Assembly (NCBI GenBank): GCA_047967505.1
Contig: CM106538.1
From: Dipteris shenzhenensis
Lineage: Eukaryota
DNA: 64,000 nt
Strand: one strand, 5' to 3'
Shown here: one piece after another, positions 1,491 through 61,254 of the stretch
Position numbering within the stretch: position 1 is the stretch's first letter
Layout: each line of letters begins with the position of its first letter
Position numbers and translations under genes: made by a program
The notes under the pieces: generated by a model
Databases searched by the model: none
What the model saw: the letters and a program-made list of their open reading frames with translations, nothing else
Told to the model about the DNA's origin: nothing

Positions 1491-1604
1491 CTGCATGTTT
1501 GAAAGGTATGTCAATCCCACTCAAAAATAGAGGAATATGTAACAACTGCAGCTATAACTGCTTTATAGGAAATCTCGAAGAAAGACCTCAAAAGGGTTTC
1601 ATAC

Positions 1605-3514: not shown

Positions 3515-3674
3515 GTGCCTCTCATCTAGATCTCTTGGTTGAAGTAGATCATCTAGACAAGCCGTAGTGGGTGTTAGAAAATGGAGAAGTATCTCTATAC
3601 TTCTCCATTTTCTAACACCCACTACGGCTTGTCTAGATGATCTACTTCAACCAAGAGATCTAGATGAGAGGCAC
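3515..3674. repeat. Perfect 78-bp inverted repeat with a 4-nt loop
   Basis: 3515-3592 is the exact reverse complement of 3597-3674. The loop is ctct and an (AT)n tract follows. Confidence 0.97.
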
Positions 3675-8700: not shown

Positions 8701-11700
8701 TTTTTTTTTTTCCTCCAAAAAAGAGACTTCTATTAAGTAAGGAAACCCGCTAGAGCAAGCTCTGTGCGGAGATACACCATGCTAAGCATGTAATAAAAAA
8801 CACCTCAGAGGAATGAGGTAGAAAGAAACCAAGGCTAAGGCTGAAAATGCCATCTCAACCCTATAGAAGTCTCAGCAAAGAAGGGAGAGTCTCTCCAATC
8901 TCTGAGAAAAGTAACTCTCCTGAAGGAGGCTGCTAGAGATGATCCCTGCATGGTCTCCCAAATGGCCATTAGAGAGTGTATCATATCTGTCCAAGTACTG
9001 GCCAAGATCTGAGAAGGGTGAACCTGATTCCAAAGCCTCGGTGCATCTAGCTCTCCAAATGTGCCATGCTGCAATGCTAGCTAGGATCTCCCATGGAGAG
9101 TCAACCGAGGAGTGAGCAGCCCTGAAAAGAGTGGCCGGAACATCCTCTAGAGAGCATGACTCCACAAGGTGTCGTCGGATGTGAAGAGCCCAAGAGGAAT
9201 CAAGTCTCTCAAAAAATACCTGGGGCCCTGAAAGAGTAAGCCAAGCCACTAATCCCCAGGTCATATAGAAAGGTAGGCGAACAAAAGTGCTGAAAAGTCT
9301 TGCAATCCCCTTCCATATGATTCTCGCCTGTCTGCAATCCCAAAGGAAGTGTTGTATAGTCTCCAAAGCAGAAAGGCAGCGAGGGCAAGAAGGGTCAGCT
9401 CCGAACTTGGAGCTCCAATGGTTTACTGCTATCCCACCATGAATAGAAAGCCAAAAGAAGAGAGTGATTTTTCTATTCCGGTGGGATTTCCAGAGTCTCT
9501 ACTAAAAAAATTTCTGCAAGTCAGCACGAATCTGAAAGTTCTCCCAATGATGAGCTCTGGTGGGCCTCCAACCCCTACAGCTGAGCTGGAATTTCCTGGC
9601 ATTACTGATTGGGACACCTCCATAGAGCCACAGCCTCCATGAGCCAAGGGCGAGGAGAAGCGGGTCAGGATCCAAGTACCACTGTGAAAGAGAGCCATGC
9701 TCCATGAAGCCCACTATCCTGACTGGCTGAAACGGTACCTCCAACAAGATATCGTCTGTGGATCTGAAGAAACATCAAATACTAAGGCATCCTCATGTGG
9801 GTCAAGAAAAGCAATCACCTGTAAAGGAACTTCAAATCTGGAAAATGCCCCCATCTAGGTGGAGCAAGTAATAGGCATGTCATCTGTGTCCACCCAATCC
9901 AAGGGCAAGGCTGCATCAATCTGTTGGACTCTCCCTGCACTCCCTCTGAGATTAAGAACCATTTGGGCCTGTCGGTCTGCAGGAAGCTTCCTAAAGGCTT
10001 TCCATGCTCCCACTGTAGATGCAGGGCCCCCCTCCCATCTTGGCCACTGCATGTAAGGAGAAGCTCCAAGTGGTCTGCCAAGCTCATCCAAAATCCTGTC
10101 ATTCCACATGATAGGCTGCCTTTCAATCTCTTCACGGGTGGATGGGGGAATCTTGCGAAGAGTACTCCTGAAGCTGGCCCATGCTTTCAGGATAGCAACC
10201 ATAAGAGGGGAAAAGGGAGACCTGACGTGGGCTGTGGTGAAAACCCATCTAGTACTGTGTGTCCAATCCTCTCCTGAAGTGGGCGTGCGAGACTGTATCC
10301 ATCTGATAAAAAAATCCTTCCAAGGCTCTTGCCCTGGCATAAGCCTCTCACAACGAACTTGCAGAGTAAAGCTCTGCACTGTAGATCTGGGTCGATGATA
10401 TTCAAACCCCCTTCTCTTGTAGGAAGAATCAAGGTCTCCCAAGCCACCCTGGCTGTAACATCAGTTATGTCAACTAACTGTCCAGGAGCTCTTCTTCCCG
10501 GCAGATAGCAAGCCTCAGCCCATAAATAATAGCTTGAGATCTAATGTAGATACTCATAGCTTCTGCCACAAACTGAAAAAGAAACGCGCCAAGAGGACAT
10601 CCCTGGCGGACGGATCTGGAAATCTGAAACCTATCCCCTCTTACCCCCCCAATGAGCAACTGGCTATGGGCTGATCTGTAGAGAGAGAATACTCCTCTAA
10701 TCCATGCATCTAAAAAACCAAAGCGAGATAGAGTACCCTCTAAAAAATCCCAGTCTACTCTATCGTAAGCTTTCTCAAAGTCCAAGAGTAGAATGGCCAA
10801 ATCTCTGGCGGCTCTGCATGGCCCCATTCTGAGGCCTCCCAAAATGAGAAAATATTATCAAAAATACTTCTGCCATGCACAAACCTTGTCTGCGTGTCAT
10901 GAATCAAATCTGGAAGAAAAACCTGTAGCCGTAGACTAATGGCTTTCACCAGAATCTTGTAAAAAGTGCCCAATAGAGTGATGGGTCTCCATTGAGACAC
11001 AAGATTCCTATTACCCCCCTTTGGGATGAGATGAATGAGACAATCTGTAAGTGAGTCCGGCATCTCACCAGAGTCCCACACGCCCTGCAGGGCTGATGTA
11101 ATGTGATCACCAAGCTGCTCCCAAAAAGTTAAAAAAAAGGAGGAGGTAAGTCCATCTGAACCTAGGCACTTGCCCTTGTGAAGGGCAAGAAAATGCAGTC
11201 TTGAATTTTGCATTGGTGAAAGGTGCATCCAGAGAAACATACATCCAATCCTTCACCAATACAGGGATACACTACCAAATAACCTCTCTAGCATCATCAA
11301 TGGCCTGTGTGCCTGGATCTACAGTAAGAAGGGACGCAAAAAAATCTGAAGCTACATGCATGACAGCATCAGGATCTGACTGTAACACCCCGTTTGAGTC
11401 AACAAGCTGCGAAACACTATCTCTACTATGTCTGGGCCCATGAGTAGAGAAAAAGTGTTTGTTGACCCTGCCACCCATCTGAATCCAAAAGGATTCCCGT
11501 GCATGAAAGGCATATTCTGCTCTCTGATCCAACAATGTCTGCAAATGAGCCCTTGCTGCAGCAAGGCGCTCCTGAATCCAAGCATCTGTGGGCTTCTTCT
11601 GCTCTTCCCTCTGAAGGGACGCTAACTGCTGGCGTATACCAATCTCACATCTGAGAATCTCACGTCTCGTAGAATCTGTGACTGTATGATAATAGTCACT

Positions 11701-12155
11701 AATTCCGGATAAGGTTCCGGATAAGGCTGCAGCTACCTGAGATGGGTGGACAGCTCCACCCTGTATGTGAGAAACCCAAATCTGTAAAATATCCTCCGTG
11801 AGGCACTCCTCTGCATAAAAAGCATCCGAAATCCTGACACTGGCAGAGCGTCCTCTCCGATGAGGCTCAAGAATCTGTAACACCACTGGAAAATGATCTG
11901 AGGTGGAAACCCCAGTAGAAATGCATACAGATCCTCCTTTGTCAAGTGCCCAATCGTCTACATAAAATCCGTCATTTCGTGCATGAATGGGCATGTGTAT
12001 TCTCCTGTTCGACCAAGAGTACAAGAGTGACTGTGGCATAATATGAAAGGCATCATCCAACCAAGTGTCCTTGCCAATGAACTGAAAGAGGAAGGCATCC
12101 CAGGCTGCCCTCTCCAAAGAATGCATTCCACCCTGTCTGTCTCCCTTTTTGTCTG
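8701..12155 (-). mobile_element. LINE family A: ORF2 (endonuclease C-terminus, RT, C-terminal Cys/His motif) and poly(A)
   Basis: WRPITLLGTFYKILVK, LLLDFEKAYDRVDW, SVRQGCPL and ETIQHFLWDC motifs; poly(T) at 8701-8712. Frameshifts and a deletion after RT. Confidence 0.92.
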
Positions 12156-12668
12156 AACAATAATCCATCTACCATGGCGATCCTTGAGAGCCACAACAGG
12201 TTGAAGGTCGTGCTTTACCAAAAAAGCCACACCAGAAAAGGAGTGCTCTCCAGCATAGAAGATATCATAACCAACAAAATGGCCTATTTGACCAGCATAC
12301 ATATGCTGATTATGCTCTTGCAAAAAGCAATTATATCAGGCTGCAATTGCCTGATATACATCCAGACCAGTTTCCATTTGCGACCATCACACATTCCCTG
12401 TACATTGAGAGCAACACACTTCAGATGATCAAGCATATTTACAGTTATGGGACAGGTATGTACAGCAACTAACGGGCTGTCTACGTCTGCATTTCCACCT
12501 CAATGTCCGGGCCTTTGCCCTAGGATGAAGCATCTCAGCCTAAGGAGAGGACAAAAGTGCAGCAACTTCTTCTTCAGGAAACAAAGTCCGATTTGTAGTC
12601 ACAGCAGCCCAAGTCAAGCCAACACCAGAGTTTTCAGCAGGTGTTTTCCCATGAGAGGATGCACCACT

Positions 12669-15022
12669 TGTAGAAATATAAAAGCAAGAGCTAGAAACTA
12701 GAAGACTAGAAGTGAAATAAGAACAAGATTGAAGGACAAAGAGTTACCTTGAGATGAGTGTAGACAAGACACAAGCTAGATAGATTGCAATGATGTGACC
12801 CATGAATATATGGGCCAAAGTACAAGACATAGAGCAAGAGTGCTTATGGGATAATTGTAGAGGTGCCACATGGCACACACTCAAGACACAAAGACTAAAC
12901 TGAGACTAGACAAATGTAGACTAGGGAAATAGTACACCTAGTGTGCACTTATCTCCAACACCCTCCTTAAGTGGACACTAGGAGTAAGACAGAAAGAAAA
13001 GACTAGAAGACAGACATAAAGACCGATAGACTGAGAGACAAGACAGAAGACATGACAGACAAAGATCCTGAGACACCCCTCCTCAAGTGATATCCTCATA
13101 TGGGTCCACAAGGGTAGGGACAAGATGGATCTAAAACAAAACACAGTTAGATTGATAGACAAATAGACAGACAGACAAGACTAGATAGACAGAAGACTGA
13201 CTGTAGACAAATAGATAGACCTTGAAGACATTCCTCCTCAAGGGCAAACTCTTCCTCTTGGGTAGGGACAAGAGAGAGGTCCAAAAGCAAAATGAGTAAG
13301 ACACTAGAACCCCTTGACCTACAAGATCTGCTGATGGAGATGCTGCAGCAATATGGGCTGAGGTAGATGCAGGGGCTGATGTAGAGGATTTGGAGTAGTA
13401 GTCCTTCTCCCGGTGATTATCACGGCCACAAATGGTGCATGGATGAGCCTTGAAGCAGTCCTTCTCCATATGATTAGTTTTGCCACAATGGGTGCAAGGC
13501 TTTCTTACCTTAGAACTTCCTTTCTTTGCTAAAAATGCAGTGTCAGTTACCTTTTGTTGTTGAGTTCTTTCTTCTTCTTAGAGAGCATTGATGGTACCTT
13601 CAAGAGTAGGATTATTGTGATACTTGAAGCTAGTGACAAGAGTAGCATAGGTGTCAGGTAAGCTTTTGAGAAGCACAACAATAGCAATATCTTCGGAGAT
13701 GGGGGACTTCACTGATGCAAGCCATAAGACTGCGAAGATAATTGACATGAGAGGCTATAGTAGCTTCCTCCTGCATATGTAGATCAAAGAATGAGATCAT
13801 AAGTGCAATCTTAGAGTTTTTAGATCGGGGTCCAAAAAGGGTATCCAAAGTGATCCATGCTTGAGAAGCAGACTGTATGTCAGAGATGTGATGAATGTAA
13901 TCATCTCCAAGACTGAGCAAGATGATAGCATAGGCTTTGTCATTCTTGGCAGTGGAAACATAAGTGACAACTTGCTCAATGTCGGAATCTTCGGGAGCAG
14001 CACGGTGAACAACGTCCCAAAGACCTTCTTTCATAAGATGGCACTTGATTTTGATTTGCCAAGTATGAAAGTTGGACCCATTGAATTTGTCGATAGACAT
14101 GAGAGAATGATTAGAAGAGGCCATGTGGGAAGGTCTTACCTCTTGCTAAGATGCAACGGCTATTCCCTTACAAGATTGCAGAAATGAATGAAAGAAGAGA
14201 TCCAAGAAGCCGGCTCTCTCACCACTTGTCAAGGCCATAGCATGTGACAGCCCATCGAAGCATGAGGAACCAGCAGTTTGCAGATATGAGGATAACAAAA
14301 AGGACTGCTCAGCAAACTGAAGGAGACAATGCACAGTACCTTGTAGACTCTTCAAGAGGAGGCGATGGCAGAACTGAAGTGAGTAGAGCAAGTGGCAGCA
14401 GATTCAGCAGGCGGACAATTGTAGACGGATGAACAGGGACAGAAATAGGGCGGCAGCCAGAGGTAAACAGCAGCGGCTGTTTGCAGGGATAGGCGGCGGC
14501 CTGTTGCAAGGCTGCTACAGCAGCATATATGAAGATGGCCGTAGCTGGAGCAGGAATACGTGCAGCATCAGGAGCAGAAATGAGCAGCCAGATTTGGAGC
14601 TACTAGTGTCGGGGCAGAGAAGGGCGACCAGCAGCTGGAGAAAAACGTGCAGAAAATGGCGGGCAGATTCCGAGGAGAGGCGGCCTGATGTAGAGGAAGA
14701 TGACAGGAAGGGAAGCTGGCTCTAATACCATGTAGAAATATAAAAGCAAGAGCTAGAAACTAGAAGACTAGAAGTGAAATAAGAACAAGATTGAAGGACA
14801 AAGAGTTACCTTGAGATGAGTGTAGACAAGACACAAGCTAGATAGATTGCAATGATGTGACCCATGAATATATGAGCCAAAGTACAACGCATAGAGCAAG
14901 AGTGCTTATGGGATAATTGTAGAGGTGCCACATGGCACACACTCAAGACACAAAGACTAAACTGAGACTAGACAAATGTCGACTAGGGAAATAGTACACC
15001 TAGTGTGTACTTATCTCCAACA
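12669..15022 (-). mobile_element. Non-autonomous gag-only LTR retrotransposon (copia-type gag, TR-GAG-like), 2354 bp
   Basis: 292-bp TG..CA LTRs at 12669-12960 and 14731-15022 (5 mismatches); TSD CCACT; PBS tggtattagagc at 14719-14730; PPT at 12961-12970; gag IDKFNGSNFHTWQIKIK and knuckle CTHCGKTNHMEKDC; no pol. Confidence 0.95.
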
Positions 15023-16129
15023 CCACTCCAAGTCCGAGAAGGCAAAGGTCGCCTGGGGGAGATCACTTTGCGAGGAGCTTGCCATCCATCAGTCAAATTC
15101 TTTTCCCCCTTCACCTGAGGTGGAGAGGACAAAGGCACAGGAAAAGAAGCATTACCATGTGAGATAGCCGAGACTTTGCCTTTGTCTTGAACAGAGAAAA
15201 ACCGTTTGACCCCTTTGTTTTTTACCACAGAAGAGGCATTTGCATTCTTATTCAAAGACTGAACCATTTCAGCTTGCACTGGCATCCGTGGAGCTCGGGA
15301 AGGGCATTGTGAAGCCATGTGCCCAAATTGCTTGCATTCAAAGCAAGCACCTGCAAACAGCCCCCACTTGAGCTTGTAATAGGCACTCCCCAAGGAAACA
15401 TTATTCACAGTGACCGAATATGAAGCTCGAGTGGGATGATTTGTATCCCACAAAATGCAGAAGCGATTCGAATTTCCATTGGGTCGTGGTGGACATACCA
15501 CCTTACCGAGCGAAGCTGCAATTTTATGTAGAAGAGAAGACAAGCATTGAGGAAAACCCACAACTTCTACCCAAACAGGGCAACGATGCCGAATCAATGC
15601 CTGGTAATCCCGGGTGGGAGACCAAGGCTAAACATGGACCTTGCTGGCCATAGAAAAGAGGAGAGTGCTCCAGCAAAACCTGACGATGCTCCTCATCAGC
15701 CATGATGATCTCAAAAAAGCCCCTCGCTGCATAATGAACTTTTTTGACATAAGAACCACCCAGAGTTCGAGTCAACCGATTCCCAACATCTGCAGCAGCA
15801 GGCATCCGTCCTAGGAAGAAAATTATAATGGCATGCTTTGCATACTCCTTAACTGGATCAAATATATCATCCACTTCCACCATAATGCTAGTGGTGGGAA
15901 GTGGATCTTTCCAACCTTTACGGGTGTCTTCAAACCCTTCATGCATAACCTCATAAACAAGCTGAGCCTCAGCACAATCATGAAGGGAATCATCTGAATC
16001 CATCACCTGTTTTTGTTTCTTGTTGGAAACCAACTTGTCTTTGTGAAAGGTTTTCTCATAGGAATAATCCGCCATTCGAGTTAAGGAAAAAACCTGGAAG
16101 CAGCAACGCTTTACAAGGAGGAAAGCACA

Positions 16130-16430
16130 GCACGTACAAAACTATACTATGTTTTCCTGGTTGTACGAACGAAATCGTGCGGATTTTAAACAGTACGAAA
16201 AAAAGTTTTCCCTGACAGGCAAACTGTATGGACTTCCCCAACTGTACGGACTGTACGGCCAAAATCGAAGGGATTTTTTGACCGTACGGATTTTCGAAAA
16301 AAAAATTCCCTATCAAGCAAACTGTACGGGATGTACGTATTTTTTTGACTGTACGGACGAAATCGTACGGATTTTTGACAATACGAAAAAAAAAAAATTT
16401 TTCCGAATTTTCTGACAAAGCGTACAGGAC
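16130..16430 (-). promoter_or_regulatory. GTAC/CCGTAC motif cluster in a LINE 5' UTR
   Basis: 11 GTAC counted by eye, 6 of them GTACGG, in about 300 bp directly upstream of ORF1. Function is inferred only. Confidence 0.6.
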
Positions 16431-19400
16431 AGAAAACGGATGTCAAAAGGAACCTCGAGGGTGTCAAACTGAGGGAGAAACAAGCAGGTGTAGCGTGGGA
16501 GCACGAGGGCTAGCACGAAATCTCTCTCTCTCACGGGAGCTCTCTCTCCACAAGACACACACTGTGAAAACACACACACACATTTTTTTTTGTAATATCC
16601 AGTGCAATATATTTATATGTTCATAAATTTACAAGATGGAAAGTCTCCGAAATGGAGAGGATCCCAAAGATCAGAAACATAAAAAGAAAAGCTATATGCA
16701 AGAAGTATCCATATCACCCTCATGGCAGGCATCATATAAGGATTGCCACAATGAGGCTCAGAAAGATTCATATGACTTGTGAATCTGTCGACCTAAGTAT
16801 GCCAAATTATGCTCTCTCCAAATTGTCGAAAGAGCCCAATATCTCACCCAAGAGAGAAATAGTGAGTATTGAGACAAAGACCTCATAACTCTGCCAAAGA
16901 GCCAGAAATGTTTCCCACAAATGTGACTCGGGAAACGGAGCCGAAGATGATCTGAAATTTTCCCGAGGTTCCTAGAACACGGGCAGTGCCAAAGCAAATG
17001 AGGGACAGTCTCTGAAGGAGCCTGACATCTTAAACATGTGGATGGTGCAATGCGACGTTTGGCAAGCATGACTCCCACTGACAATGTGCCTGTCATGCAT
17101 CTCCAAAGAAAAAGTCTTTGTTTCAATGGCATTTTACACTTCCATAATATCCGGAGATTCTTCTGCCACCATGAGAGGGGCTTCCTTATATGCCACAGAG
17201 TATTAGCATATTGCTGAATCCATGGAGCAGGCTGAAGAAGCCTGTAGACTTTGATGGAGGTCAAGGCAGGAAGAGGAACAGGATACGTGCATGTAGCAGA
17301 GGGTTGCAATTGCCAATCCATAAGCATGTCTGTGTCAGCCACAGGAGGAACAGGTAGAAAAGGATGTAACAAATCAATAATTTTCTTCCATATGGACCTA
17401 TGGTCCATTCCCAATGCATAGGAAGCAGTGGCTTGGGGAAAAGATAAGACATAGCCCTGATTATCTACCACATCATTTATGTATCTAATTCCCAATTTCA
17501 TGAGATTGTATGCCCAAACAGGTTCCTGTAAAGCGAGTGGAATGTCAAAGATGGCACTCCAATGAATACTTTCTTTCCTCATTGAATTTGTCCCCGAGCA
17601 ATTATCAGGAGCCCATTTGACCTTAGAAAGTACTTGCTTCCAGTCAAGTATCGGAGCAGTAGAGAAAGGACAGCCAGGTATCTTCCCTACAAATCTCCCA
17701 ATGACAACCTCCCAATGATCAGTAGTCCAATGACCATAAGCACAAGTCCTCATGTTGATACACATGGATGCTATCATACAAGTCCATGGCTGTTGTTGGC
17801 GGAAAAAAGTATGGAGCATAGTCACCTTCCTGGCAAGTACATGATATCTTATATTGAGGACATTGAGTCCACCATGCATCCTAGGAGTGCACACCATTTC
17901 CATCTTCATCAGTCTCAATGCTTTCACAACAGTTTTTGTCCTCCATAACATCTCCATTGCTTGAGACATAAAAGCTGAAATATCCCTGGAGGACCAATGC
18001 AGTAAAGGCAAAAAGAACTGGACATAGGACATTACAATGGACTGTACTATTCTGAGCCTGACATGAAGAGGCCAAGTAGAAATTTTCCAGTAGTCCAATT
18101 TATGTTGAAGTCTTTGGAAGATCCATTTTAACTGCTGCTTTCTAGTGATATGCCATCCAATAGGATATCCCAAATGCTTGACTACATCTTTGGAATGCAC
18201 CACCTGCCATGGCCAGAGAATAGAATGCCAATCACATTGTTTCAAGGGAAGCAATTTAGATTTGTTGAAATTGACATGCAATCCCGCTGCCAAACCATAC
18301 AATGATAGGGTGCTCATGAGCATGTGAACTTCCCGGGGAGAATTCTGGGTGGCATAAAGAAGGAATCATCAGCATATGCTTGTGCCACCACAAAAGATGC
18401 AGCCCCAAGGATTTTAAGACCAGTCATCTGTCCTCTGTTTGTAAGATGATCAAGATACATTAAGAGGGGATGGGTCGCAATGGCATAAAAGAGAGCACTA
18501 AGAGGGCAGCCTTGTCTAACTAATCTGCCCAATGTCCATGACCGAGATAGATGACCCCCAAGAATACACTGAGAAGTAGAGCCAGAATAAAGCCAGTAAA
18601 CTGCATTTGCTATCTTGGAACCAAAGCCCATCTTTGTCATGATTTGAGAGATAAAATCCCATTGAACAGTGTCAAATGCCTTAGCAATATCCACCTACAA
18701 TATGAGCACATCTTGATGTGAATACTTAGCCTATTCGATTGCAGTCAAGGCATTGGAGATATTATCATGGATTTGTCTGCGTGGCACAAACCCATATTGA
18801 TGAGGATGAAGTCCCACATTCAGTAGCCCGTGAAGCCTATACACAAGCATTTTGGCAATGAGTTTGTAAACTACATGCATCAAAGTAATAGGCCTCCAAT
18901 CTGACATATGGTCACACAGATGTTTTTTGGGCACAAGTTTGACTATGCCATGCTTCCAAGAGTGCCGCAACTGATTTTCTTGCCAGGCAACATTGATCAT
19001 TTGCAAGAGGATGTCTTTCAAATCATCCCAAAGGAAATATAAAATTCCACCGTAAGGCCATCCCAGCCAGGGAACAATGCATTATCAAGTTCTGTGTCAG
19101 TAAAAGGTCTCTCCAAGATACGAGCATCATCCATTTGCACTATTTCAGAAACATATTGCTTTTCCTTTATCTTTTCCTTTTCCAGCAAGTGGCTGCACCT
19201 GATTGATTGGTTTGGCATTCTTTGCTCCATTTCTATTTGCTGTCTTAGCCTGCAAATTCTCATTTTTTTCCCGTGTTTGGGGTGGCAAAGCATTGGGAGG
19301 GGGCTGATGCAGAACCATCGCATTCAGAGGCTAGATGCCCAAACTTGTGGCAGGCAAAACAAGCTCCTACAAACACACCCCACTTTAATTCAAAATACAT

Positions 19401-20735
19401 TTTCCCCAATTGTACTCCCTCAACTTCAACTGCAATAGAAGGAGGGGTAGGTGTGTCAGTGTCCCAGAGAATGCAGAACCTGTTACGGTTTCCCATGGGC
19501 CGTGGAGGGCAAATGACCTGTCCCAAAGAAGCAGCCAGGCCAGGCAACTCTTCACGCATATAATCCAGGAAGTTAACAACCTCAACCCATACAGGACAAT
19601 GATGTCGTATAAGACATTGGTAATCCTTGTTTGGAGACCAGGGCATAGCATGTACCATCTGCTTCCCATAAAACAGGGGAGAGAACTCAAGTAGCCTCTG
19701 CTTGCATGAAGCATCGGATAAATGTATACGAGAGACAAAACTGTCCCAAGCATAATCCATGTCCTCCCGGGTATGCAAAGGCAAGGGATGAATTGCAAGT
19801 CTGATTATTTGCTGGAAATGGTGATGTCGGAAATAAGCCTGATTAACATGCAATAATCTACTGGAAAGAGGTGGCAAATCATCCAGTGTCATACCAAGTT
19901 GCAGATTCATCCATAATGGGGCATGATCTGACAAGCCCAATGAGAAATCTATGAGGAGATGAGGGCTAAAATCTGCATATTGTTGTGGGTAAAACAAATA
20001 CCATCTGTCAAGCCTTGCCAAGTATGTAGTAAGTGCATTATGATGAAAAGTATATCCAGACACTAACCCTTGGAGAAGCAGCCATAAATCTTCAGCCTGC
20101 ACAGAAAGAAGCATGCTATCCCATTTCTGCCTTTCCGATGATAGCATATGAGATCTTGAAGTGGTGTTATCTCTTAGCAGAGGGGAACTATTAAAATCTC
20201 CACAGATGAATGCATTAGATCTCCATGGATATTTGCTTAAAGAATCCCATAAAGAAGCCCTCATGGCAGAGGTCTGGGAGGCATAGACTGATGCAAACTC
20301 ACGAATATCACCATTGACATTACATTGTATGACCAGCCATCTGCCACTGCTGTCATTGAAGGCTAACTGAGGCTGCAGCTCATGTCTAACCATTATGCAT
20401 ACACCTGAGTAGGTATTGGTACCAGCATAATATATATCATAACCGCCAAAGTATTCAGGATGACCAGCCTTAGAGTGTTGATTATGCTCTTGCAAACAAA
20501 CAATATCTGGCTGCATTTTATGTACATGATTCCAGAAAAGCCTCCACTTTGAGACATTGCAGAGGCTCTGTACATTGTATGTAAAGCACTTAAGTGTTTG
20601 ATGAATGAAGGTATATACAGAAAAGTATAAGTATGAAACAAGATATCAGAGAGGCAAAGCCTCTGCCTGCATGGGCTGCATGCCTTCATGATCCAAGAAA
20701 GATATAGCATTCTCCTCTTCTTCAGAATCACATAT

Positions 20736-23700
20736 TTTTTTTTTGCCGAAAAAACAGTGCTAATTATATTACTTCGAGAACAAGATACAAAAGGTCAGCT
20801 TGTAGCTGACGGGCTGCGTTCACAAATCGGACACAGCCCTAAAAGGTAACAAAATAAATCACTCTCTCACGGCGGGATAAGGCGAGTGTGAATGAACAGC
20901 CATCGGGGTGGTGAGTAGCGCCACCGAAGGCCCTGCGAAGTCTGCTCGAAGAAGAGGCCCTGTGTGTCCCAAGCCCGGAGGAAGCGTCTCCGCTTCTCCC
21001 GACCGGGACCGGGAATCTCCCTGAATCTGGTCCCACTGGCCTCTGAGGGTATGAATAATCTCGCTCCAAATATCAGTCATGATCTGGGCAGTCGATAAGG
21101 AGGTGACACCGAGGATCTGCGCGCAATGCGAGGTCCAAATGTGCCACCCTGCGATGCTGCTAATAATCTCCCAGACTGGCTGCCTCTCCTGAACTCCTGT
21201 ATCAGCCTCTGCTAGGTGCTGCGGGATACCCTCAAGCGGCCCCCATGTTCCCTGTGTGATAAGGAAAGTGGGGTTCTGCTGGCATGCCTCGAATAAGTGA
21301 TGTAGACCAGGTGCGGTGCTGCACCAACAGAACGCGCCCCAAGTGATCAAACCTAGCTCTGGTGCTGCGCGAGTGAGAATCCCGAAAGTCCACCTCCACA
21401 CTTCCTGGGCGTGAGTGCAGCTCCACAGGCAGTGTTTTGGTGACTCTTCAACCTCATGGCAGATCTGACAGCGTCCGTCCTGGCCTATTTGTCTCAACCA
21501 GCTCCCCACCGGAAGACCTTTGTGGGCGAGAAGCCACAGGAAGTAGGAGATCTTCCGCCTAAGCCGCTGGGTGGGGGGGCGGCTCTGCATCCTCCCAAGA
21601 ACTCGCCTGCCCAAAGTCGTGCTATAGGCAAAGAAGGAGGTCGGCCCCTGTCCTGTCACAATCTCTGGCCAACTCCACTCTCCTGGGTCCCAATCAAGCT
21701 CTGACAAGGCCCGCCCCTCCCAGAGCCAGAGTCGCCAAAGCTGCATCTGATCCTGCTCAATGCTAGGATCGGTACGCCAGACCTTTCCCAAAAGGCCTAC
21801 GACCCGAACCCTCTGCCATGGGAGTAGGGGGTCGATGAGTGCATCCTCTCTCCTGAGTCGTCCATCCCCCATAACCGCGAAGAAGGAAATAGAGGAGTCG
21901 TCCATACGTCCTGTGACCACCAGTGGGATGCCACGGGGGGTGAACTGTCCCAGCCAACGGTCGTCACCAGGCATGAGGATCTGAGGCTCAGGTGAAACCA
22001 ACCAATCAGCTGGGATCGCGCCGTCGATCTCCGTGCGTCTCGCCTGGGCTCCACGTGCACCTCCAGCTGCGTCTGCGAGATCAGCCGTCTCCAAATGTCT
22101 GTACGTGTCCCTCCAAAATCGAAGGGACCGGGCTGGCCCCCTCATCCAACCATCCCACCTGATATGTGATCTCTCCCCCAACTGAAGGCCCTCGGCATCT
22201 CTGACCTGATCATTCCAGATAAGTGGCTGGCGATCGATCTCTTCCTGACAACGGGGAGGGGACTGAATGAGACTGAGGCGGAGCCGCCTCCAAACCATGA
22301 GGAGGCTACGAACGAGTGGGGAACGGGGCTGAGTGAGCGGGGCGGAAGTGAAGATCCACCTGAGGGACGGGAGCCACTCTCCACCTCGGCGCGGGACACA
22401 AGAACCGACCCCCTGCTGAAGTAGCATCTTCCACGTCTGCCCCCCCGGGGTCAAACCGCGGATGACTAACTTGCCTAACAAGGCCTAACTCTGCAGCTCT
22501 GGATCGATGACCCCCAGGCCTCCCTCAGCCTGCGGAAGAATGACTGTCTGCCAAGCAACCCTGGCTCTGGTATCTCTGAGGCCATCCTCCCCGGACCAAA
22601 GGAAGTTCTGAACCAGCCTCCTAAGCTGTGCCACGCTGGATCTCGAGAAACACCAACAGGAGGCCACATACCAAGCTGTGGCAAGGACTTGGTTGACTAC
22701 CAAGGCACGACCTGCAAGGGAAAGCTTAGCAGTGCTCCAGAAAGCCAGCTTCCGTCGGATGGAATCTAGCACCGGGAGAAACTGCTGAGCTGGCGTGATG
22801 TCCAGGCCGACCTGAAAACCCAGGTATCTAGCTGTCTGTCCCCGCGGGATCCACCTGAAACCCAAAAACCTCCCCCACTGAGAACGCGCCCCGGGGTCTG
22901 TGAGAAAACCAACTGATTTGTTCCAGTTGATTTTCGCACCAACAGCTGAACAGAAGACCTCCAGGGCCATCCTCACCCTCTCCAGCATCAACTCATCGTC
23001 TTGGACATACAGGGCTGTGTCATCCGCGTACTCCGAGTCCAAGAGCTCCGTGTCCTCCCGGAGGGGAAGGCGAACACCTCTGATCCCTGTAGACCTCGCC
23101 CGAAGGTAGTAAGTCATAGCCTCGGCGAAGAAGAGAAACAGGTAAGGAGCAAGGGGGCAGCCCTGACGCACTGATCTCTCCAAGCTAAAACGCTCACCCA
23201 TCCTGCCTCCAATGATGACTCTGCTAGAAGCTGTCCTGTACAAAGCTGAAATACCCTGAATCCAACCTGCTGGGAAACCTAGCCGCTCCAGAGTCCCCTC
23301 CAGAAAGGACCAATCCACTCGATCGTAGGCCTTCTCAAAGTCGAGAAGTAGGATGGCAAGGTGTGATCCGCTGTGCTGAGCCCACTCCGCCGCCTCTGAA
23401 AAGGTGAAGACATTATCCAGGATACTGCGATCCTGGACAAAGCCTGTCTGAGTGTCATGAATGAGGTCTGGAAGTAGAGGCCGAACTCTGGCGCTGATCA
23501 TCTTGGCGAGGATTTTGTAGGCAGTGGTAAGGAGAGTGATCGGGCGCCACTGACGGATCTCCTGTCTATCTCCTCCCTTCGGGATGAGGCAAATCAGTCC
23601 CGAGGAGAGGCTCTTTGGCATATAACCGCTGCTGAAAATCCTCTGAAGAGCTGCTAGGAGGGGCTATTGGATCTGGTCCCAGAAGGAGGTGAAGAATGCC

Positions 23701-26557
23701 CGGGATAGCCCATCCTCACCTGGGCACTTCTGTCCATCGATGGCCATCAAGGCCTCCAGCATCTCATCCGTGGTAAACGGTGCCAGCAACGTCGCCTACA
23801 TGCTAGGCTGGACCAAGGAAGGAGTGTGCCTCCACACCTCCTCACGGGCACGACGAGTACGAGGAGCAAGCGGCTCCTGCTCGAAAAGGGTCCTGTAGAA
23901 GTCGGTGGCCAACCCCAAGACCTCTCCCGGATCCGTAACGATGTGTCCCTCCGCTGTCCTGAGACTCCGAAGCTAATCACCTGCAGCTCTCTGGCCATGT
24001 GTCCTGAAGAACTCCCTGCACATCCGGTCACCCTTCCGAGCCCAGAAGGAGAGAGAGGCGTGATAGGAAAACTCTGAGCGACGCTGGAGTGTCTCCTCAA
24101 GAAGGGCTCTGGCTCGAAGGGCCTGGATCCGAAGCTCCTCCGAGCCCGGGGATGCCTGCTGGAGTCGCTGAATGGAGGCGAGGTCCCTCTGAAGAGCTCT
24201 CTCTCTACCCCACCACTCCTGTCGAACCTGTAGGGCTGCGAGCTGGCAAATCTGGCTGGACTCCTGCAAAGCCTGCGCCACCGAATCAACCAGATCCGCG
24301 CACTCGCCCCAGTCTCTGTCCCAAAGACTGCAAATACTGCTGCGCACGTCCTCCCTCGAGAAAATGGAGTCGGGAATCCGGCATGAGCGGGGGGGAAGGG
24401 CCTGAGCTGCCGAATCTAATGATAAGAGCACAGGCGCATGGTCGGAAAGTGTCGTCCCTGGAACTATACCGGCCTGACCGCCTCTGCTAATGGCCCAATC
24501 ACTAACATAAAATCTATCCAGCCTCTCCAGGAGTCTGCCTCCTTCCCTGCGGAAGTCCCACGAGAAGTCCAAGCTCCCATGCCAACGCCGGAAGGACGGG
24601 TCTCGCCAACAGTCCCTTCCTCCTGTCGCAAAGATAAAAGAGTCCCAAGCGGACTGCTCTGCCTGAGACATACCTGTAAACTCCGGTCCTCTGCCCTGCT
24701 GGTCCTCCAAGGTCTCCAGATTGTTGAAGTCACCTCCAACAATCCAGGAATCCAAGTCTGGGAGAATCCCTGTAAGTGTCCTCCAGAAGGTGGCTCTACA
24801 ACGGAGATCTGTGGGAGCATAAATGTTGAGGATTCCAACTCTGGAGCCCTCCAATTCCAGGCCTACCCAAAGGGCACGACCTGGTATCAACGTGCCATGA
24901 CCGAAAACTCCCTGGGCTAGCTGCTCTCCCACGGAAGTACAGACACCACCACTCCTCCCCAGTGCGCCGATCGAGGGCTCCCAATAAGTGTGAGAGCGAC
25001 CAGGGAGAATCTTCCCGCATCTATGGGAGTGAGACGCCGAAAGCTTGTGCTCCTGAAGCAGAAGTACATCCAAACGACCAATCACTGCTGGCTGAAGTTC
25101 CTGTCTCAAAATGAGCTTCCTAGGACCACGGGTGCCAGAAGAGTGAAACCCGTTCACATTCCAGGATACGAGGTGTAGGCTCATGGTGAGGACTGGGAGG
25201 CTGCGAACAACTGTCTGCTCGCGGTCGAAGTCGAAGAAGAAGCTGACATTTCGGAGTGGAGGCGCTGGCGCTTATGGAAAGGTTTGGAGGGGGAAGCGGG
25301 GTCGTCCTGCCCCTCCTTCAACACCTTCAGCAAAGGCGAGAGGCCTTTGGTACCATGAACGAAAGCTTTCTCGAGCCAGCTCGAGATCTCTGAGGTGGAC
25401 ATCCCGTAGAAGGCACGGAGTTTCTGAGGAGTCCAGGCTCTGACATCTTGGGGGAGGGGCCAAGACAGGGGGGGCCTGAGGATCACAATCAGTCTGAAGC
25501 GTTTGGTGGCGCAGCGCCACCGCAGGCGCACGTCACCCTCGGACCACTGAGTCTCGAGAAGCTGCCCACCGGACGGGCCTATCCAGGAGCAAACCTGAGC
25601 ATGCGTCTGCTCCCTGAGAGCCTCCCAGACCGAGTCGTCTGTCCAGGTCTCGGTGCCGTCGCTAAGGAACGTGAAAGCAAAGCTAGGGCCATCCCTAGGG
25701 GCCAAGGCGGCTATCTTCCCATCCGCCCCTTTGCGGAGCAGGAAGATACTGATCCTGAACCCGAGATGATTGTTGCTCTGTCAGGATGACGCGGTAGGCA
25801 TCTGGAGAGGGAGGGACCGTCTGGGCCTCCGGTTCCGGGCAGGGAGCCGCCATACCGCCAAGACAAACTGCGAGGCTTCCGATGAGGAAGAGGCTGCCAC
25901 CCAAAAAAGGGGGGGGGGGGGGGGAGAAGCGGGAGGGTGGAGCCTGGGTGTGGCGGGAACGGAGGTGGCGCGGGGTGGAGGCGTGGAGGCGGAGAACGGG
26001 TGAGGTGGGGAGGCGGGAGCGGAAGCGGGGGCGGGGGAGAGGCGGAGCGGGGCGAGAGGGCGGACGGAGGGGCGGGGTGGAGCGAATGGGCGGGGGGAGG
26101 GGGGGCGGGGGTGAAGGCGGGAGGGGAAGGCGAGGGTGGAACGGGAGGGCGGAGAGGCGAGAGGGGGCGGGGGCAGGAGGCGAGGGGTGAGGGGGCGGAA
26201 TGGGAGGCGGGGGTGAGCGGAACGGTGGAGGGCGGGGGTGGAGCGTGGCGAGGGGGGGCGGAGCGAAACGGGGGTGAGGCGGGGAGTGAGGGGTGAGGGC
26301 GGGGGGGGCTGCGGTGAGGGGGGGGAGAGACGGAGGTGCGAGGGGGGGGGGTGAGGACGAAGGGCAGGGGTGAGGCGGAGGAGGGGCGGGTGTGGCGAGG
26401 GAGGGCACGGTGGCAGCAGCGGGTGAGGGGAGGTGAGGGCGGAGGGGTAGGGGCGGGAGAGGGCGCGAGGCAAGGAGGGGCTAGGGGGAGGTAGAGGTAC
26501 GGAGGGGGAGGGGAAGCTCGCAGGAGCTCGAAGAGTTGTTCTCGATTGGCAATGAGT
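20736..26557 (-). mobile_element. LINE family C, 5.8 kb, both ends intact
   Basis: 15-bp TSD TTCAGAATCACATAT (20721-20735 and 26558-26572); poly(A); ORF2 from 25184 (SWNVNG, QEHK, GGDFN, RLDR, SDH; RT YADD) with a few stops; short ORF1 at 25853-25181. Confidence 0.96.
25909..26515. repeat. G-rich low-complexity tract (5' UTR of LINE C)
   Basis: About 600 bp of dense G runs on the plus strand. Confidence 0.85.
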
Positions 26558-27714
26558 TTCAGAATCACATATGGGGATGCCCTTCTTCAAAACCCCCACC
26601 CAATTTTGAAGGACAGGAGCTGAAGTGGAAGCCTGTCCTGGTGAAGGAGAAGAAGCATCCACCAGATTGAAAGGGGCGTTGCTTCAAAACAACCACCTTC
26701 TTAGGCTGTTGAAAACCATCCCGATCTGTTCCCACAGATTCCTTCATCTTCTCTTTTTCTTTTTCTTTTCCTTTTCCAGCAAGTGATTGCACCTGATTGA
26801 TTGATTTGGCATTCTTTGCTCCATTTCTATTTGCTGTCTTAGCTTGCAAATTCTCATTCTTTTCCCGTATCTGGGGCGGTAAGGCATTGGGAGGGGGTTG
26901 ATGTAGAACCATTGGGCATTCAGAGGCTAGATGCCCAAACTTGTGGCAGGCAAAACAAGCTCCTGCAAACACACCCCATTTCAATTCAAAATACTTTTTT
27001 CCCAATTGCACTCCCTCAACTTCCACTGCAATAGAAGGAGGGGTGGGTGAATCAGTGTCCCAGAGAATGCAGAACCTGTTACGGTTTCCCATAGGACGCG
27101 GAGGACAAATGACCTGTCCCAAAGTAGCAGCCAGACCAGGCAATTCTTCGTGCATATAGTCTGGGAAGTTAACAACCTCAACCAATACGGGACAATGATG
27201 GCGTATTAGACTTTGATACTCCTTGTTTGGGGACCAAGGCATAGCATGTACCATCTGCTTCTCGTAAAAAAGGGGAGAAAGCTCAAGTAACCTCTGCTTG
27301 CATAAAGCATCTGATAAATGCACCTCATAAAAGCCTCTAGATGCAATATATACTCCCTCTACAAAGAATCCTCCAAGGATGGACTTAATCCACTGTCCGA
27401 CATCACTGGCTGCTGGGATTCTTCCTGGAAAGAAAATTATAACCGCGGTTTGAGATAACTTTCTGAGAGGATTCACGAGGGAGGGCAATTTCAATTTGTA
27501 CGTGACCTCTAGAACTGGTTTGCCCCATTCCTGTCGTGACTGTTGAAAGTCATCCTTGAGAGTATCAAACACATATTGAGCTTCCATAGTAAGTTCAGCA
27601 TCTTGTGTTGCAGGCTGTGAAGAGCGGCGCTTAGCATCTGCAGATCTTTCTTGTCGAGCATATGTACTAACATCCCAACCTGAAGCCATGATTGAAATAC
27701 GACAAGGCAAGAGG

Positions 27715-28265
27715 GACTGTACGGAGAAGTATAGAATCAGAAGTAAGCGAGACACAGGAGTGTACGGAAAAGCACGGGCGCGAGAACTCGGGACTGTACG
27801 GGAAATGTACTGGATTGTACGGACCAGAGCAAACTGTACGAAGGTACAGATGAGGCTGTACGGAAAAGAGCAGATTGTACGGAAAGAGCAGACTGTACGG
27901 GGAAGAGCAAACTCTACGAAAACAGGAGGTAGAGCTGTATAGATGTACGTAAGGTGCAAAAGGGCACAAAAAGGACTGTACGGAAATGCACAGAAGCAAG
28001 ACCCAGAAATCGTACGAAAAGATGCGGGATTACATAGACTGTACGGAGAAGCCTGGATTGTACGGGGACTATTTCAACGGGACTGTACGGAAAGGCCTAG
28101 ATTGTATGGAGATGCAAAAGGGGACGAAAAGGACGGTACAGTACGGATATACCAACGAGGCTGCTAGGACGCACAGAATGCAGACTTCAGAAGGGTACGG
28201 CGATGCAAACAGCCACGGATATGTACGGCCGTACGGAGTCGCGGACAATAGGGGAGCCTGTACAG
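27715..28265 (-). promoter_or_regulatory. GTAC/CCGTAC motif cluster in a LINE 5' UTR
   Basis: About 22 GTAC counted by eye, 15 of them GTACGG, in about 550 bp upstream of the ORF1 ATG (27689). Function is inferred only. Confidence 0.65.
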
Positions 28266-28341
28266 GAATCCTTAGCGAGGCTGGAGAGCAGAGGCCGCTA
28301 CCACACACACACACACACTACGCGCAGACACACACACACAC

Positions 28342-28835
28342 TTTTCTTTTAAAAAAGTAAAATCCAGTGCAGTGTATTTATATTCTCATAAATTTACAAG
28401 ATGGGAAGTCTCCAAAATGGAGAGTATCCCAAATATCAGAAACATAAAAAGAAAAGCTCTATGCAAGAAGCATGTATATCACCCTCATGGCAGGCATCAT
28501 ATAAGGATTGCCACAATGAGGCTCGGAAAGATTCATATGACTTGTGAATCTGCCGACCCAAGTATGCCAAATTATGCTCACTCCAGATTGTCCAAAGAGC
28601 CCAATATCTCACCCATGAGAGAAATAGTGAATAGTGAGACAAAGACCTCATAAATCTGCCAAATAACCAAAAATGTTTCCCAAATCTGTGACTCAGGAAA
28701 CGGAGCCGAAGATGATCTGAAATTCTCCCAAGGAGGTTCCTAGAACATAGGCAGTGCCAAAGCAAACGAGGGACAATCTCTGAAGGAGCCTGACATCTAA
28801 ACATGTGGATGGTGTAATGTGACATTTGGTAAGTG
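28342..28835 (-). mobile_element. 5'-truncated LINE family B 3' end
   Basis: Homologous to 16583-17065; A-rich tail; flanked by (CA)n. Confidence 0.93.
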
Positions 28836-28847
28836 TCACACACACAC

Positions 28848-29216
28848 TTTTTTTTTTTTTGGTAAAATCCAGTGCATTGTATTTATATTCTCATAAATTT
28901 ACAAGATGGGAAGTCTCCAAAATGGAGAGTATCCCAAAGATCAGAAGCAGAAAAAGAAAAGCTCTATGCAAGAAGCATGTAGATCACCCTCATGGCAGGC
29001 ATCATATAAGGATTGCCGCAATGAGGCTCGGAAAGATTCATATGACTTATGAATCTGCCGGCCCAAGTATGCCAAATTATGCTCATTCTCCAGATTGTCC
29101 AAAGAGCCCAATATCTCACCCATGAGAGAAATAGTGAGTATTGAGACAAAGACCTTATAAATCTACCAAATAACCAAAAATGTTTTCCAAATCTGTGACT
29201 CGGAAAACGGAGCTGA
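28848..29216 (-). mobile_element. 5'-truncated LINE family B 3' end
   Basis: Homologous to 16583-16946; poly(A); flanked by (CA)n. Confidence 0.93.
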
Positions 29217-29274
29217 ACACACACACACACACACACACACACACTTTTTTTTAAAAAAATACATACACACACAC

Positions 29275-29788
29275 TTTTTTTTTTTTTGTAAATCCAGTGC
29301 AGTATATTTATATTCTCATAAATTTACAAGATGGAAAGTCTCCAAAATGGAGAGTATCCCAGAGATCAGAAACATAAAAAGAAAAGCTCTATGCAAGAAG
29401 CATGTATATCACCCTCATGGCAGGCATCATATAAGGATTGCCGCAATGAGGCTCGGAAAGATTCATATGACCTGTGAATCTGCCGACCCATGTATGCCCA
29501 ATTATGCTCACTCCAGATTGTCCAAAGAGCCCAATATCTCACCCACGAGAGAAATAGTGAGTATTGAGACAAAGACCGCATAAATCTACCAAATAACCAT
29601 AAATGTTTCCCAAATCTGTGACTCGGGAAACGGAGCCGAAGATGATATGAAATTCTCCCAAGGAGGTTTCTAGAACCCGGGCAGTGCCAAAGCAAATGAG
29701 GGACAGTCTCTGAAGGAGCTTGACATCGTAAACATGTGGATGGTGCAATGTGACGTTTGGCAATTGTGATTCCCATTGACAATGTGCC
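29275..29788 (-). mobile_element. 5'-truncated LINE family B 3' end
   Basis: Homologous to 16583-17090; poly(A); flanked by (CA)n. Confidence 0.93.
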
Positions 29789-29821
<33 letters not shown>

Positions 29822-29897
29822 ATACGCGCACACACATTAACTCTGTGTTAGGAAAAACATTAATGGAACAAATCTAAAGAGCAAATAAGCCTTTTAC

Positions 29898-29988
29898 TTG
29901 ATGAACCATGGAGCAGCACTGGCACTTGAAATTCAAGACTTGGATCCGTTTTTCAAGTCGTGGGATGAACATTATTTCTAAATAGTAC
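29898..29988 (-). CDS. Formin exon (FH2), not in the ORF track
   Basis: tttctggtag|G TAC...CAT CAA|gtaaaa, 91 nt, phase 2/0. It encodes (K)YYLEIMFIPRLEKRIQVLNFKCQCCSMVHQ and joins in frame to [12 protein letters not shown] at 1847. Confidence 0.92.
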
Positions 29989-30082
29989 CTACCAGAAAGA
30001 AAATCATCCGTTTGTCAGAGAGAAGGAAGAGAAAACAGAACTGTTCAAGAATAGTCATTAAACATACATGAGATTTCCTCAC

Positions 30083-30333
30083 TTTTCAACTTCAGCCAAT
30101 TGAGATGGATCGCCTTTGTACTCTTTCAAAACGGCAATATCGTCCTTTGTGGGAAGGGTACGATAGAGCACGTTAAGAACTTCACTGGTCAAAACGTTCT
30201 TATCAATGCAATGTAGAGCCTTGCAAAGTTCAGGAAAAGGCTTCCGTAAACTTGATAGTTGTATGCTTACATTGTGTGCTCTCTTCATGTCTATAACATG
30301 AACTCCCAATGACTTCTTTTTTAGTGACAGATT
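30083..30333 (-). CDS. Formin exon (FH2 knob)
   Basis: atatcag|AAT...GAA AA|gtgagg, 251 nt; VIDMKRAHNVSIQLSSL...LPTKDD...EYKGDPSQLAEVE. Confidence 0.92.
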
Positions 30334-30689
30334 CTGATATAACATTTTAAACAGCCTTGTCAATTCCAAAACACAGAGTTACCAAAGAAAAGCACTGAGA
30401 AAAGCAGTCTGACAATTTTCAATTCTTTCACAGGAAAAGTGTTCTATTTGATTTCCAGCTATCTCTGAGCTGCAGATGACATCTTCAAAGTAAACAACCA
30501 ACGTGGCATAGAATTTAGCCTAAATATACTCTTGATAATCCCTCCCTTATTTGTATAAAAGCCTGATTTATTTTTTAATGGCATGTTTCATTGAGTATGA
30601 GGAGCCCTAAAAAATCATTATCATTTGCAGAAACTGGAGCTACAATGTTCATGACTCTACACTCCCTTGTGACTGAGAAAGGGATGAAC

Positions 30690-32044
30690 CTTTGTAACTT
30701 GTCCTTGCAACGGTACAGGATTTGTTGCAAATAGAGATTCAAGTTGTTTCAAGTCCATTGTAACAGACCCTGTGGCTGTGTTCTTCCATACAGTTTTCTC
30801 TGCCAAAGTGCCAGATATCTTACACCAAATCAATTGCTTCATTTTTGGCTTTTTTGCCTCTGGTATTTTTGTCAGATCTCCCTGAAGATTATCTCCCCAA
30901 TGATTTGACATTGGTGAAAGGGACCCACTGGATTCCCTTTTTGGTGACTGGGGTGATGGAGGTGGCGGCGGTGGCGGTGGTTGTCTCTGTAACTGTGATT
31001 TTGGTACCGGGGGCGGTGGTGGAGGTGGTGGTGGAGGATGAGGCACAGAGGGGGGCCATGCAGGTAGTGGATTTGTTTGTAGTATCAGTGAATTTGGAGG
31101 TGGAGGTGGAGGTGGAGATGGAGGTAAAGGTGGAGGCAGCTGTGGCCATATTTGCAGTACTGGTGAGCGTGGAGGTAGTGGTGGTGGTGGTGGTGATGGT
31201 GGTGGTGGTGGTGGTGGTGGTGGTTGGGGGGGAGGAGGTGGAGGTGGAGGTGGAGGTGGAGGTGGAAGAGGTGGAGGTGGAGGTGGAGGCAGTGGTGGAC
31301 AAGGGGAAGAAGTCTGGTTTACAGCATCAGTTGAGCAAGGTAATGAAAAGCCTGGCAAGGAAAGATGGGTCAGAAACTTATCGACAACTCTTGGTGCCTG
31401 TTGCATGGGATGTGCAGAAAATGACTGTGTAACTTGCAGAAACCTGACACCTTCCTCACACTCAATCGTCTCTAGTGAATGTATGCCCTTGTTACACAAA
31501 TCCATAGATCTGCAGCTGGTTTTCTCAGTGTTAACACATTTTTGTGAAGGGTTTTTAACTGAGTGAGAAGAAATCACCGGTGCTATCTTCTGAATTTTAG
31601 ATTCACTTTTGTCTTCTGTCAAAATCTCCACTGCAAGGTTTGTTCTCAAGTCTGTCTTGTCATAGAAGTTGGCAACTTGGTCTTCTAGATTATGTAATGT
31701 TATGTCCGTTTGACCAATGGTCTTCTGAGTGGCCTGGGAAAGACTGACACTTTTTTCACAGTCCTTTAATCCGGACAAAGGAATGCCTTTTTTGCACAAC
31801 TCCATGAATCCAATCCTTGTGTGGTCAGTAGAGGCATAAAAATGTGAAGGTTTGTAAAGATGCTGATCCAAATTTCCCAGATTTCCAATGGAATGAGGAG
31901 AGATCATCGAGGTTACACTTTGAGATTCTTTATACTCATTACTGCCTTCTGTTGAAATTTGTATTGGCAGCTTCCCTTTCAACTGTGTCTTCTTGCTAGT
32001 ATGAGAGTTGGATGCTTGCCCTTCCAGATCATCACAAACCATGT
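30690..32044 (-). CDS. Formin large exon: linker, polyproline FH1 and FH2 start
   Basis: Lies within ORF 30657-32114; long Pro tracts, then KPKMKQLIWCKI...TVW...DLKQLESLF. aaacag|AC (phase 1) and AAG|gttcat match the neighbouring phases; exact ends are less certain. Confidence 0.88.
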
Positions 32045-61250: not shown

Positions 61251-61254
61251 GGTT

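Follow-up and report, generated by a model that had tools for sequence, protein, structure and literature searches.

Family B, an L1-type LINE of the fern Dipteris shenzhenensis, stacked head to tail in a CA/TG repeat of a formin intron: possible insertion at (CA)n/(TG)n microsatellites

Long interspersed nuclear elements (LINEs) with an apurinic/apyrimidinic-type (APE-type) endonuclease that target microsatellites include Waldo (ACAY), Mino (AC), Kibi (TC), Koshi (TTC) and Dong (TAA), and those treated in the relevant part of the review PMC3812793, whose main text never uses the word 'plant', are all from animals. Kojima and Jurka (PMC4640811), in the part of their paper on this subject, assign target-specific families to the early-branched, Tx1 and R1 groups, and describe the fish element Togen, a relative of NeSL, as specific for (TG)n. 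Plant L1 lineages are described without target specificity in the sections of Ohshima's paper that concern them (PMC3747384). Here, we analysed a stretch of 64,000 nucleotides from the fern Dipteris shenzhenensis (assembly GCA_047967505.1, contig CM106538.1), called the window below. In this window, copies of one LINE family, family B, lie head to tail in a CA/TG repeat within an intron of a formin gene. We give somewhat better than even odds, at a probability of about 0.55, to the reading that integration of family B is strand-specific, takes place at (CA)n/(TG)n microsatellites and is primed from the CA strand. No case of a target-specific LINE in a land plant was found in the searched literature, outside which lie Repbase reports and subscription journals, and a precedent is possible.

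Each of the known systems shares part of what is seen at this locus. Mino (MinoAg1, R1 clade, Anopheles) and Waldo are, like family B, APE-type retrotransposons without long terminal repeats (LTRs) that lie in AC/TG-type microsatellites, according to the portion of PMC3812793 on these elements. However, they are from insects and belong to the R1 clade, whereas family B gives L1-type endonuclease matches and has A-run tails. Unlike Mino and Waldo, the elements here show the plant-L1 domain set, with zf-RVT and, in the neighbouring families, a first open reading frame (ORF1) with DUF4283/zf-CCHC. Kibi at (TC)n and Koshi at (TTC)n, both of the Tx1 group, share with family B the L1 superfamily, an APE endonuclease and insertion into microsatellites (PMC3812793, PMC4640811 and PMC3747384, in the parts on these elements). 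Their repeats are different ones and their hosts are fish, whereas the nearest relatives found for family B are fern proteins. Togen has the same (TG)n target (PMC4640811, in the part on Togen), but its endonuclease is restriction-like, while that of family B is APE-type. Ordinary plant L1 elements have the domain architecture, the A-rich tail and the frequent 5' truncation of family B, but in the sections of PMC3747384 on plant elements they are not described as tied to microsatellites; in family B, all four tails in the window lie at (TG)n, in a head-to-tail stack. The stack itself is like the one-orientation arrays of 5'-truncated LINEs formed by repeated insertion of the telomeric HeT-A, TART and TAHRE in Drosophila, as these are outlined in published accounts. 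Zepp of Chlorella also forms a one-orientation array of 5'-truncated LINE copies. These arrays belong to chromosome ends or poly(A) tails, whereas the array of family B lies at an interstitial dinucleotide repeat in an intron.

The array occupies positions 8701-29836 of the window (21.1 kb) and all its LINEs lie on the minus strand; we describe it in minus-strand order. The outermost tract, J0 (29789-29836), is a (TG)n/(CG)n tract with a CGCGTA interruption, which flanks copy e on its 5' side and adjoins unique intron sequence. Copy e (29275-29788) is a 5'-truncated family-B 3' end with an A13 tail (29275-29287). Between it and copy d lies J1 (29217-29274), which reads (GT)5-ATGTA-T7-A8-(GT)14. 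Copy d (28848-29216; A13 tail at 28848-28860) is the shortest family-B 3' end, and J2, a (GT)5.5 tract (28837-28847), separates its tail from the 5' end of copy c. Copy c (28342-28836), another family-B 3' end, is 5'-truncated about 25 bp short of e, and its tail is T6A4GA4 (28342-28356). It is followed by J3 (28302-28341), (GT)7-CTGCGCGTA-(GT)8, and then by the 5' end of Y (20735-28301), a LINE of another family that is near full length and has an A10 tail (20735-20744). J4 (20729-20734), with TATGTG only, lies between the tail of Y and the 5' end of X. The long family-B copy X (16583-20728) is 5'-truncated upstream of its endonuclease (EN), internally rearranged, and ends in an A9 tail (16583-16591). 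J5 (16555-16582), (TG)6-TTTCACAG-(TG)3.5, then leads to Zb (12156-16550), the 5' portion of a further LINE, with a zf-CCHC-bearing ORF1 and an EN N-terminus. The last member is Za (8701-12155), a 5'-truncated LINE related to Y, whose A11 tail (8701-8711) is followed by GGACC... and no TG.

The initial annotation had proposed five family-B copies in one orientation with a (CA)n tract at every junction. The minus-strand orientation and the five tracts it named hold good, but the number of certain copies is four (X, c, d and e). What it took for one copy at 28300-16583 is two LINEs, Y and then X, each with its own tail, and the junction between them, inside the claimed copy, has TATGTG only. The supposed copy at 16550-12156 has no family-B 3' end and is a composite of other LINEs running to 8701. 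A pure family-B array is thereby replaced by one with at least three LINE families, and about 5.5 kb of the 21.1 kb belong to family B. The T7A8 piece within J1 (29245-29259), which is like the odd tail of c, may be a tail-only fifth copy of family B.

The pile-up of family-B copies in the CA/TG repeat is real and is no chance pattern. We found 27 matches of (CA)5 in the window against 0.10 expected from shuffles, and 26 of these are in the array, all on the plus strand. There are ten CA tracts of at least four units, all with CA on the plus strand, and nine of them belong to the array. The motif ACACAC-TTTTTT, with at most one mismatch, has seven matches (0.41 expected), six of which fall on five array junctions. 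The match to this motif at 57830 is surrounded by (AT)n, close to a gypsy element, and is not of family B. No LINE tail adjoins the (CA)5.5 tract at 49344-49354.

The association is with the tails of family B. The A-runs of X (A9), c (T6A4GA4), d (A13) and e (A13) pass directly into J5, J3, J2 and J1, so that (TG)5 or more follows 4/4 family-B tails, whereas (TG)4 or more follows 0/4 of the non-B LINE tails in the window (Y at 20735-20744, Za at 8701-8711, a Za-like tail at 45952-45960 and a minus-strand LINE at about 61243-61262). The strand of the repeat is also fixed relative to the element: the sense strand carries TG at every junction of the array and at the two junctions found outside it, a small sample. 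Read on the plus strand, the junction is ...CAC|TTTT in five of six cases and ...ACA|TTTT at X.

Whether the short copies arrived separately was judged from their sequences, compared with the end of X (last 360-510 bp; 16592-17090). Copies c, d and e are 89-91% identical to X and 94-95% identical among themselves. Their lengths are unequal (e 514, d 369 and c 495 bp), their tails differ, and they have three distinct 5' truncation points. Over the 354 columns common to X, c, d and e, 305 are identical in all, 21 separate X from c/d/e and three are complex; private changes number 4 in c, 9 in d and 8 in e, and pair-shared changes 2 in d+e and 2 in c+d. In the public contigs described below, X carries the minority state of the family in 11 of the 21 X-distinct columns. 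From these patterns, c, d and e appear to be near the family majority and star-like among themselves, which fits separate insertions better than serial duplication. Tandem duplication or a LINE-derived satellite would give equal units and nested shared mutations; the units are of unequal length, and private changes far outnumber pair-shared ones. Thus, the initial annotation was right that the short copies have their own truncation points, tails and private substitutions, and its preference for independent insertions over tandem duplication is likewise the likelier reading, given the star-like substitutions together with the truncation points. We also considered the copy ages as a guide to the direction of array growth (X is most divergent, 21/354, and c least, 4/354), and rejected this because the counts are too small and just 11 of the 21 X-distinct states are confirmed as minority ones.

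It is very improbable that the short copies are an assembly artefact, in which reads of a high-copy repeat were misjoined at microsatellites. This idea would gain from the highly repeated state of the family-B 3' end and from the breaking of public short-read contigs at the repeat. However, an artefact would give near-identical units, while c, d and e are 5-6% apart, with distinct truncation points and tails.

Family B at other loci was studied in contigs of four public sequencing runs, aligned to positions 16400-17100 of the window. This alignment skipped 16553-16598 as repeat, and 16400-16591 had in part little or no cover. In three runs of one organism, the contig word depth shows the family-B 3' end to be highly repeated. 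In run X5, the summed word depth is 625-5,650 on the family-B 3' end and 0.9-11 on the neighbouring Zb flank, a depth that does not equal copy number. One contig of run X1 (151 nt, depth 2.3) contains about 55 bp of the family-B 3' end; 39 bases are aligned, 4 of which differ. A T8 run in this contig is preceded by (AC)3, and on the other side there is CACACAC followed by unique sequence. A loose end of run X5 brings TA(CA)5 exactly at the 5' truncation point 16811. Both junctions show the strand relation seen in the array. Among the 20 public runs listed as matching the query, the shares were 0.18 or less; some of these runs bear the label of air or algae metagenomes, which we do not read as a sign of habitat. 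Exact-pattern scans with conserved motifs of the family-B 3' end gave 0 loci in metagenome contigs and 0 in viral contigs.

These loci and the outer end of the array bear on a different account of the tails, namely that (TG)n is the templated 3' end of family B itself, or the transduced flank of a master copy, and that the array grew, without any targeting, through unequal crossing-over or segmental duplication between TG tracts and then lost sequence by deletion. Such an origin would agree with (TG)n standing straight after the A-run on every family-B tail. It would also agree with J0 and J3, which bracket the e-d-c block and both have a CGCGTA interruption between TG repeats, as is expected of one template or of duplicates. 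Moreover, microsatellite-like tails occur in many LINE clades, and RTE-clade LINEs and their short interspersed nuclear element (SINE) partners end in TTG repeats (PMC3747384, in the part on tails). On the other side, the 48-bp TG/CG tract 5' of copy e meets unique intron sequence, and there is no A-run or family-B copy upstream; therefore, a repeat was present upstream as well as downstream of e. The tiny copy of run X1 has CA on either side and then unique sequence, and the TG tracts differ in length (5 units to at least 14). The unequal units (514, 369 and 495 bp) with differing 5' points and mostly private substitutions also argue against growth by duplication. We consider this account rather unlikely. 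The (CA)n targeting proposed in the initial annotation is thus favoured, through the 5' flank of e and the two outside 5' junctions in CA, while its own counter-case, (TG)n as part of the element's 3' end, keeps a place beside it.

Several observations weigh against (CA)n/(TG)n targeting by family B. Y and Zb, which are not of family B, also border TG tracts, as a family-independent hot spot would give. In such a case, the TG/CA tract would be a sink for any LINE, either as a fragile or structured repeat that gives nicks or as a tolerated spot in the intron, and family B would simply be the most abundant of its visitors. Three LINE families do adjoin these tracts ((TG)n lies at the 5' end of Y and TATGTG after its tail, and the 5' end of Zb lies at J5), and every LINE of the array is oriented like the gene. 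Waldo-A and Waldo-B of Drosophila, near CA repeats, have been proposed to accumulate there passively (PMC3812793, in the part on these elements). However, a sink open to all families agrees poorly with the count of 0/4 non-B tails against 4/4 family-B tails, and a breakage model would not predict one constant strand relation between element and repeat, the two outside loci included. We regard a sink as quite unlikely. Y was also considered as a second (TG)n-targeting family and rejected, because there is only a single copy.

The remaining points concern the sample and the form of the evidence. The four copies in the window share one locus and hence are not independent evidence, and only three junctions at other places speak to targeting: the 5' flank of e, the run X1 contig of depth 2.3 and a 12-letter loose end. 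The tails of other family-B copies are mostly invisible in the contig alignment, in which 16553-16598 is masked. Loose ends behind 17013 and before 16711 have no CA and are not plainly divergent homologues; this refers to the loose ends listed, beyond which there are another 20. Target-site duplications are unreadable inside a dinucleotide repeat, and no empty site was seen. The CGCGTA common to J0 and J3 suggests that both were copied from one ancestral tract, for which the target must have undergone a long duplication, the tail must have been templated or the region must have been duplicated locally. Finally, the age order of the copies gives no growth direction.

If family B does target the repeat, the insertion may proceed as follows. 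The first-strand nick would be made in the CA strand, mostly at the C^A (pyrimidine-purine) step. Reverse transcription would then be primed from ...CAC-3', and each copy would consist, on the sense strand, of its body, an A-run and (TG)n. The second nick would also fall inside the repeat, so that TG is kept on both sides of the new copy. With TG on both sides, the landing pad would therefore be renewed, and later copies could be added head to tail, always with one orientation. By this route, at least four family-B copies (X, c, d and e), or five if the tail-only piece is counted, would have entered one microsatellite 64 nt into the formin intron; two LINEs of other families are present in this tract.

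The specificity could come from either of two sources, the endonuclease or a read-through (UG)n tail of the RNA. A primer ending in CAC-3' is unable to pair with poly(A). Either the reverse transcriptase (RT) may need no pairing of the primer, or a (UG)n read-through after the A-run of the RNA may anneal to the nicked repeat; with such annealing, tail and target would be identical, and each insertion would re-seed the repeat. The use of downstream target sequence by R1-type elements is a parallel to such annealing. The L1-type domains of family B (Exo_endo_phos, RVT_1 and zf-RVT) show that the element is of a type that allows target-primed reverse transcription.

The domains identify family B, on sequence similarity, as a highly repeated L1-type fern LINE with an APE endonuclease, an RT and zf-RVT. 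Exo_endo_phos was found by Pfam in the X frame 19260-20645 (E = 3.4e-11), which places an APE-type endonuclease N-terminal to the RT. RVT_1 lies in the X frames 18314-18694 and 18734-19081, and zf-RVT in 16758-18365 (E = 7e-12). Within X, EN spans about 19854-20582, an ORF1-like patch 19159-19724, RT 17853-19009, and zf-RVT lies within 16761-18365, all on the minus strand. The X copy is dead, because its reading frame is broken into three pieces. When the EN frame of X was compared with PDB, 5/5 matches were L1 endonucleases (best E = 8.3e-08), and neither the R1Bm nor the TRAS1 endonuclease was matched at E ≤ 0.01, in a single-sequence phmmer search that is a weak test. The initial call of an APE-type plant LINE, here seen to be L1-like, thus agrees with the Pfam matches to EN, RT and zf-RVT and with PDB matches to L1 endonucleases only. 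Tails of A9, A13, A13 and T6A4GA4 and three truncation points were also observed. Because X is rearranged, it is uncertain whether its EN segment truly belongs to family B.

Relatives of the C-terminal frame of X are mainly fern proteins: in 6/7 cases the relative is a hypothetical protein from Adiantum nelumboides, a fern, with 47-59% identity. For the frame of EN and patch, 5/8 relatives are from the same species. This agrees with the placing of the family in a fern by the initial annotation. No long proteins related to the EN of X were found.

The formin gene that holds the array lies on the minus strand of the window, as shown by Pfam FH2 matches in five minus-strand reading frames. These are frame 30660-32120 (profile positions 5-55), frame 30082-30378 (65-147), frame 29877-30014 (148-180; FH2 exon 29901..29972), frame 1602-1847 (180-255) and frame 792-1520 (259-372). 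The exon at about 29972-29901 ends in ...CATCAA|GTAAAAGG, with the donor GT at 29900-29899. The next formin exon starts from 1847 and is preceded by ...TTTCTAG|, and the FH2 profile is gapless across both exons. It follows from the exon ends and the gapless profile that the intron has its first base at 29900 and its last at 1848, a length of 28,053 bp. The outermost TG tract reaches as far as 29836, which is 64 nt from the formin donor, in good agreement with the start at about 60 bp from a donor given by the initial annotation. The array takes up 75% of this 28-kb intron. The six LINE insertions of the array, all within this one intron, are sense to the formin gene.

Tentatively, and at a little less than even odds, we propose that a fern L1-type family independently evolved strand-specific integration at (CA)n/(TG)n, probably through (UG)n annealing, that its self-renewing pads build up head-to-tail stacks, also trap other LINEs and contribute to the great length of fern introns, and that it would be the first target-specific LINE of a land plant. 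If this is true, target choice has converged within the L1 superfamily, and family B would be a natural system for separating a specificity set by the endonuclease from one set by annealing of an RNA tail. The birth and growth of microsatellites in plants would be tied to LINE activity. There would also be a concrete way for introns of giant fern genomes to swell locally, here by 21 kb of a 28-kb intron. If the TG stretch is just a templated tail, the array would be an ordinary pile-up of LINEs.

The relations between the LINEs of the array were also compared. The RTs of X and Y share about 32% amino-acid identity, and the two elements have no nucleotide alignment outside one 566-bp patch. In this patch, X 19159-19724 is 90% identical to 26753-27320 in the ORF1 of Y, over the C-terminal part of DUF4283 and the zinc knuckle. 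It occupies the linker position between EN and RT in X and is in frame with EN, giving an open frame of 461 amino acids. The resulting order of EN, ORF1 piece and RT is abnormal; an Adiantum gene model (P0007) has the order ORF1, EN, RT. Template switching, rearrangement or exchange of an ORF1 module are possible origins of the patch. In Y, the minus-strand domains are ORF1 (26568-28073, with a weak zf-CCHC), EN (23976-25271), RT (22488-23663) and zf-RVT (20862-22484). Between its ORF1 and EN, positions 25909-26470 are of low complexity, G-rich on the plus strand and C-rich on the sense strand of Y; this region has many overlapping tandem repeats, a G16 run and a GC skew of up to 0.30.

Zb and X have a single nucleotide match, of 163 bp at 69%, and the EN N-terminus of Zb is 45-50% identical in amino acids to the EN of X. 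The RT of Za is 61% identical in amino acids to that of Y. At the boundary, around 12126-12156, the EN alignment breaks off near residue 116 and resumes near residue 194, with an X-like N-terminus in Zb and a Y-like C-terminus and RT in Za. Either the LINE is a chimera, or two elements have been joined with no tail to be seen at the point of fusion. A copia-like, gag-only LTR element of 2.36 kb (12669-15023, minus strand; Retrotran_gag_2, DUF4219 and zf-CCHC) is nested in Zb. The LTRs measure 299 bp, share 98% identity and have TG...CA ends, and the target duplication is CCACT (5 bp). A plus-strand LINE fragment at 8282-8706 is inverted against the A-run of Za; it contains an EN N-terminus with 45% amino-acid identity to the EN of X, and is 69.6% identical in nucleotides to Zb 12220-12656.

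Outside the array, a run of more than 20 G at 60873-60893, in a LINE-derived region, may be a true homopolymer or a weakness of sequencing or assembly. A Ty3/gypsy-type LTR retrotransposon lies at 54341-57660 on the minus strand, with capsid, protease, integrase and SH3_Tf2-1 domains. More LINE fragments, of several families, are found at 33536-34994, 37307-37796, 52689-53578, 59675-60601 and 62649-63707.

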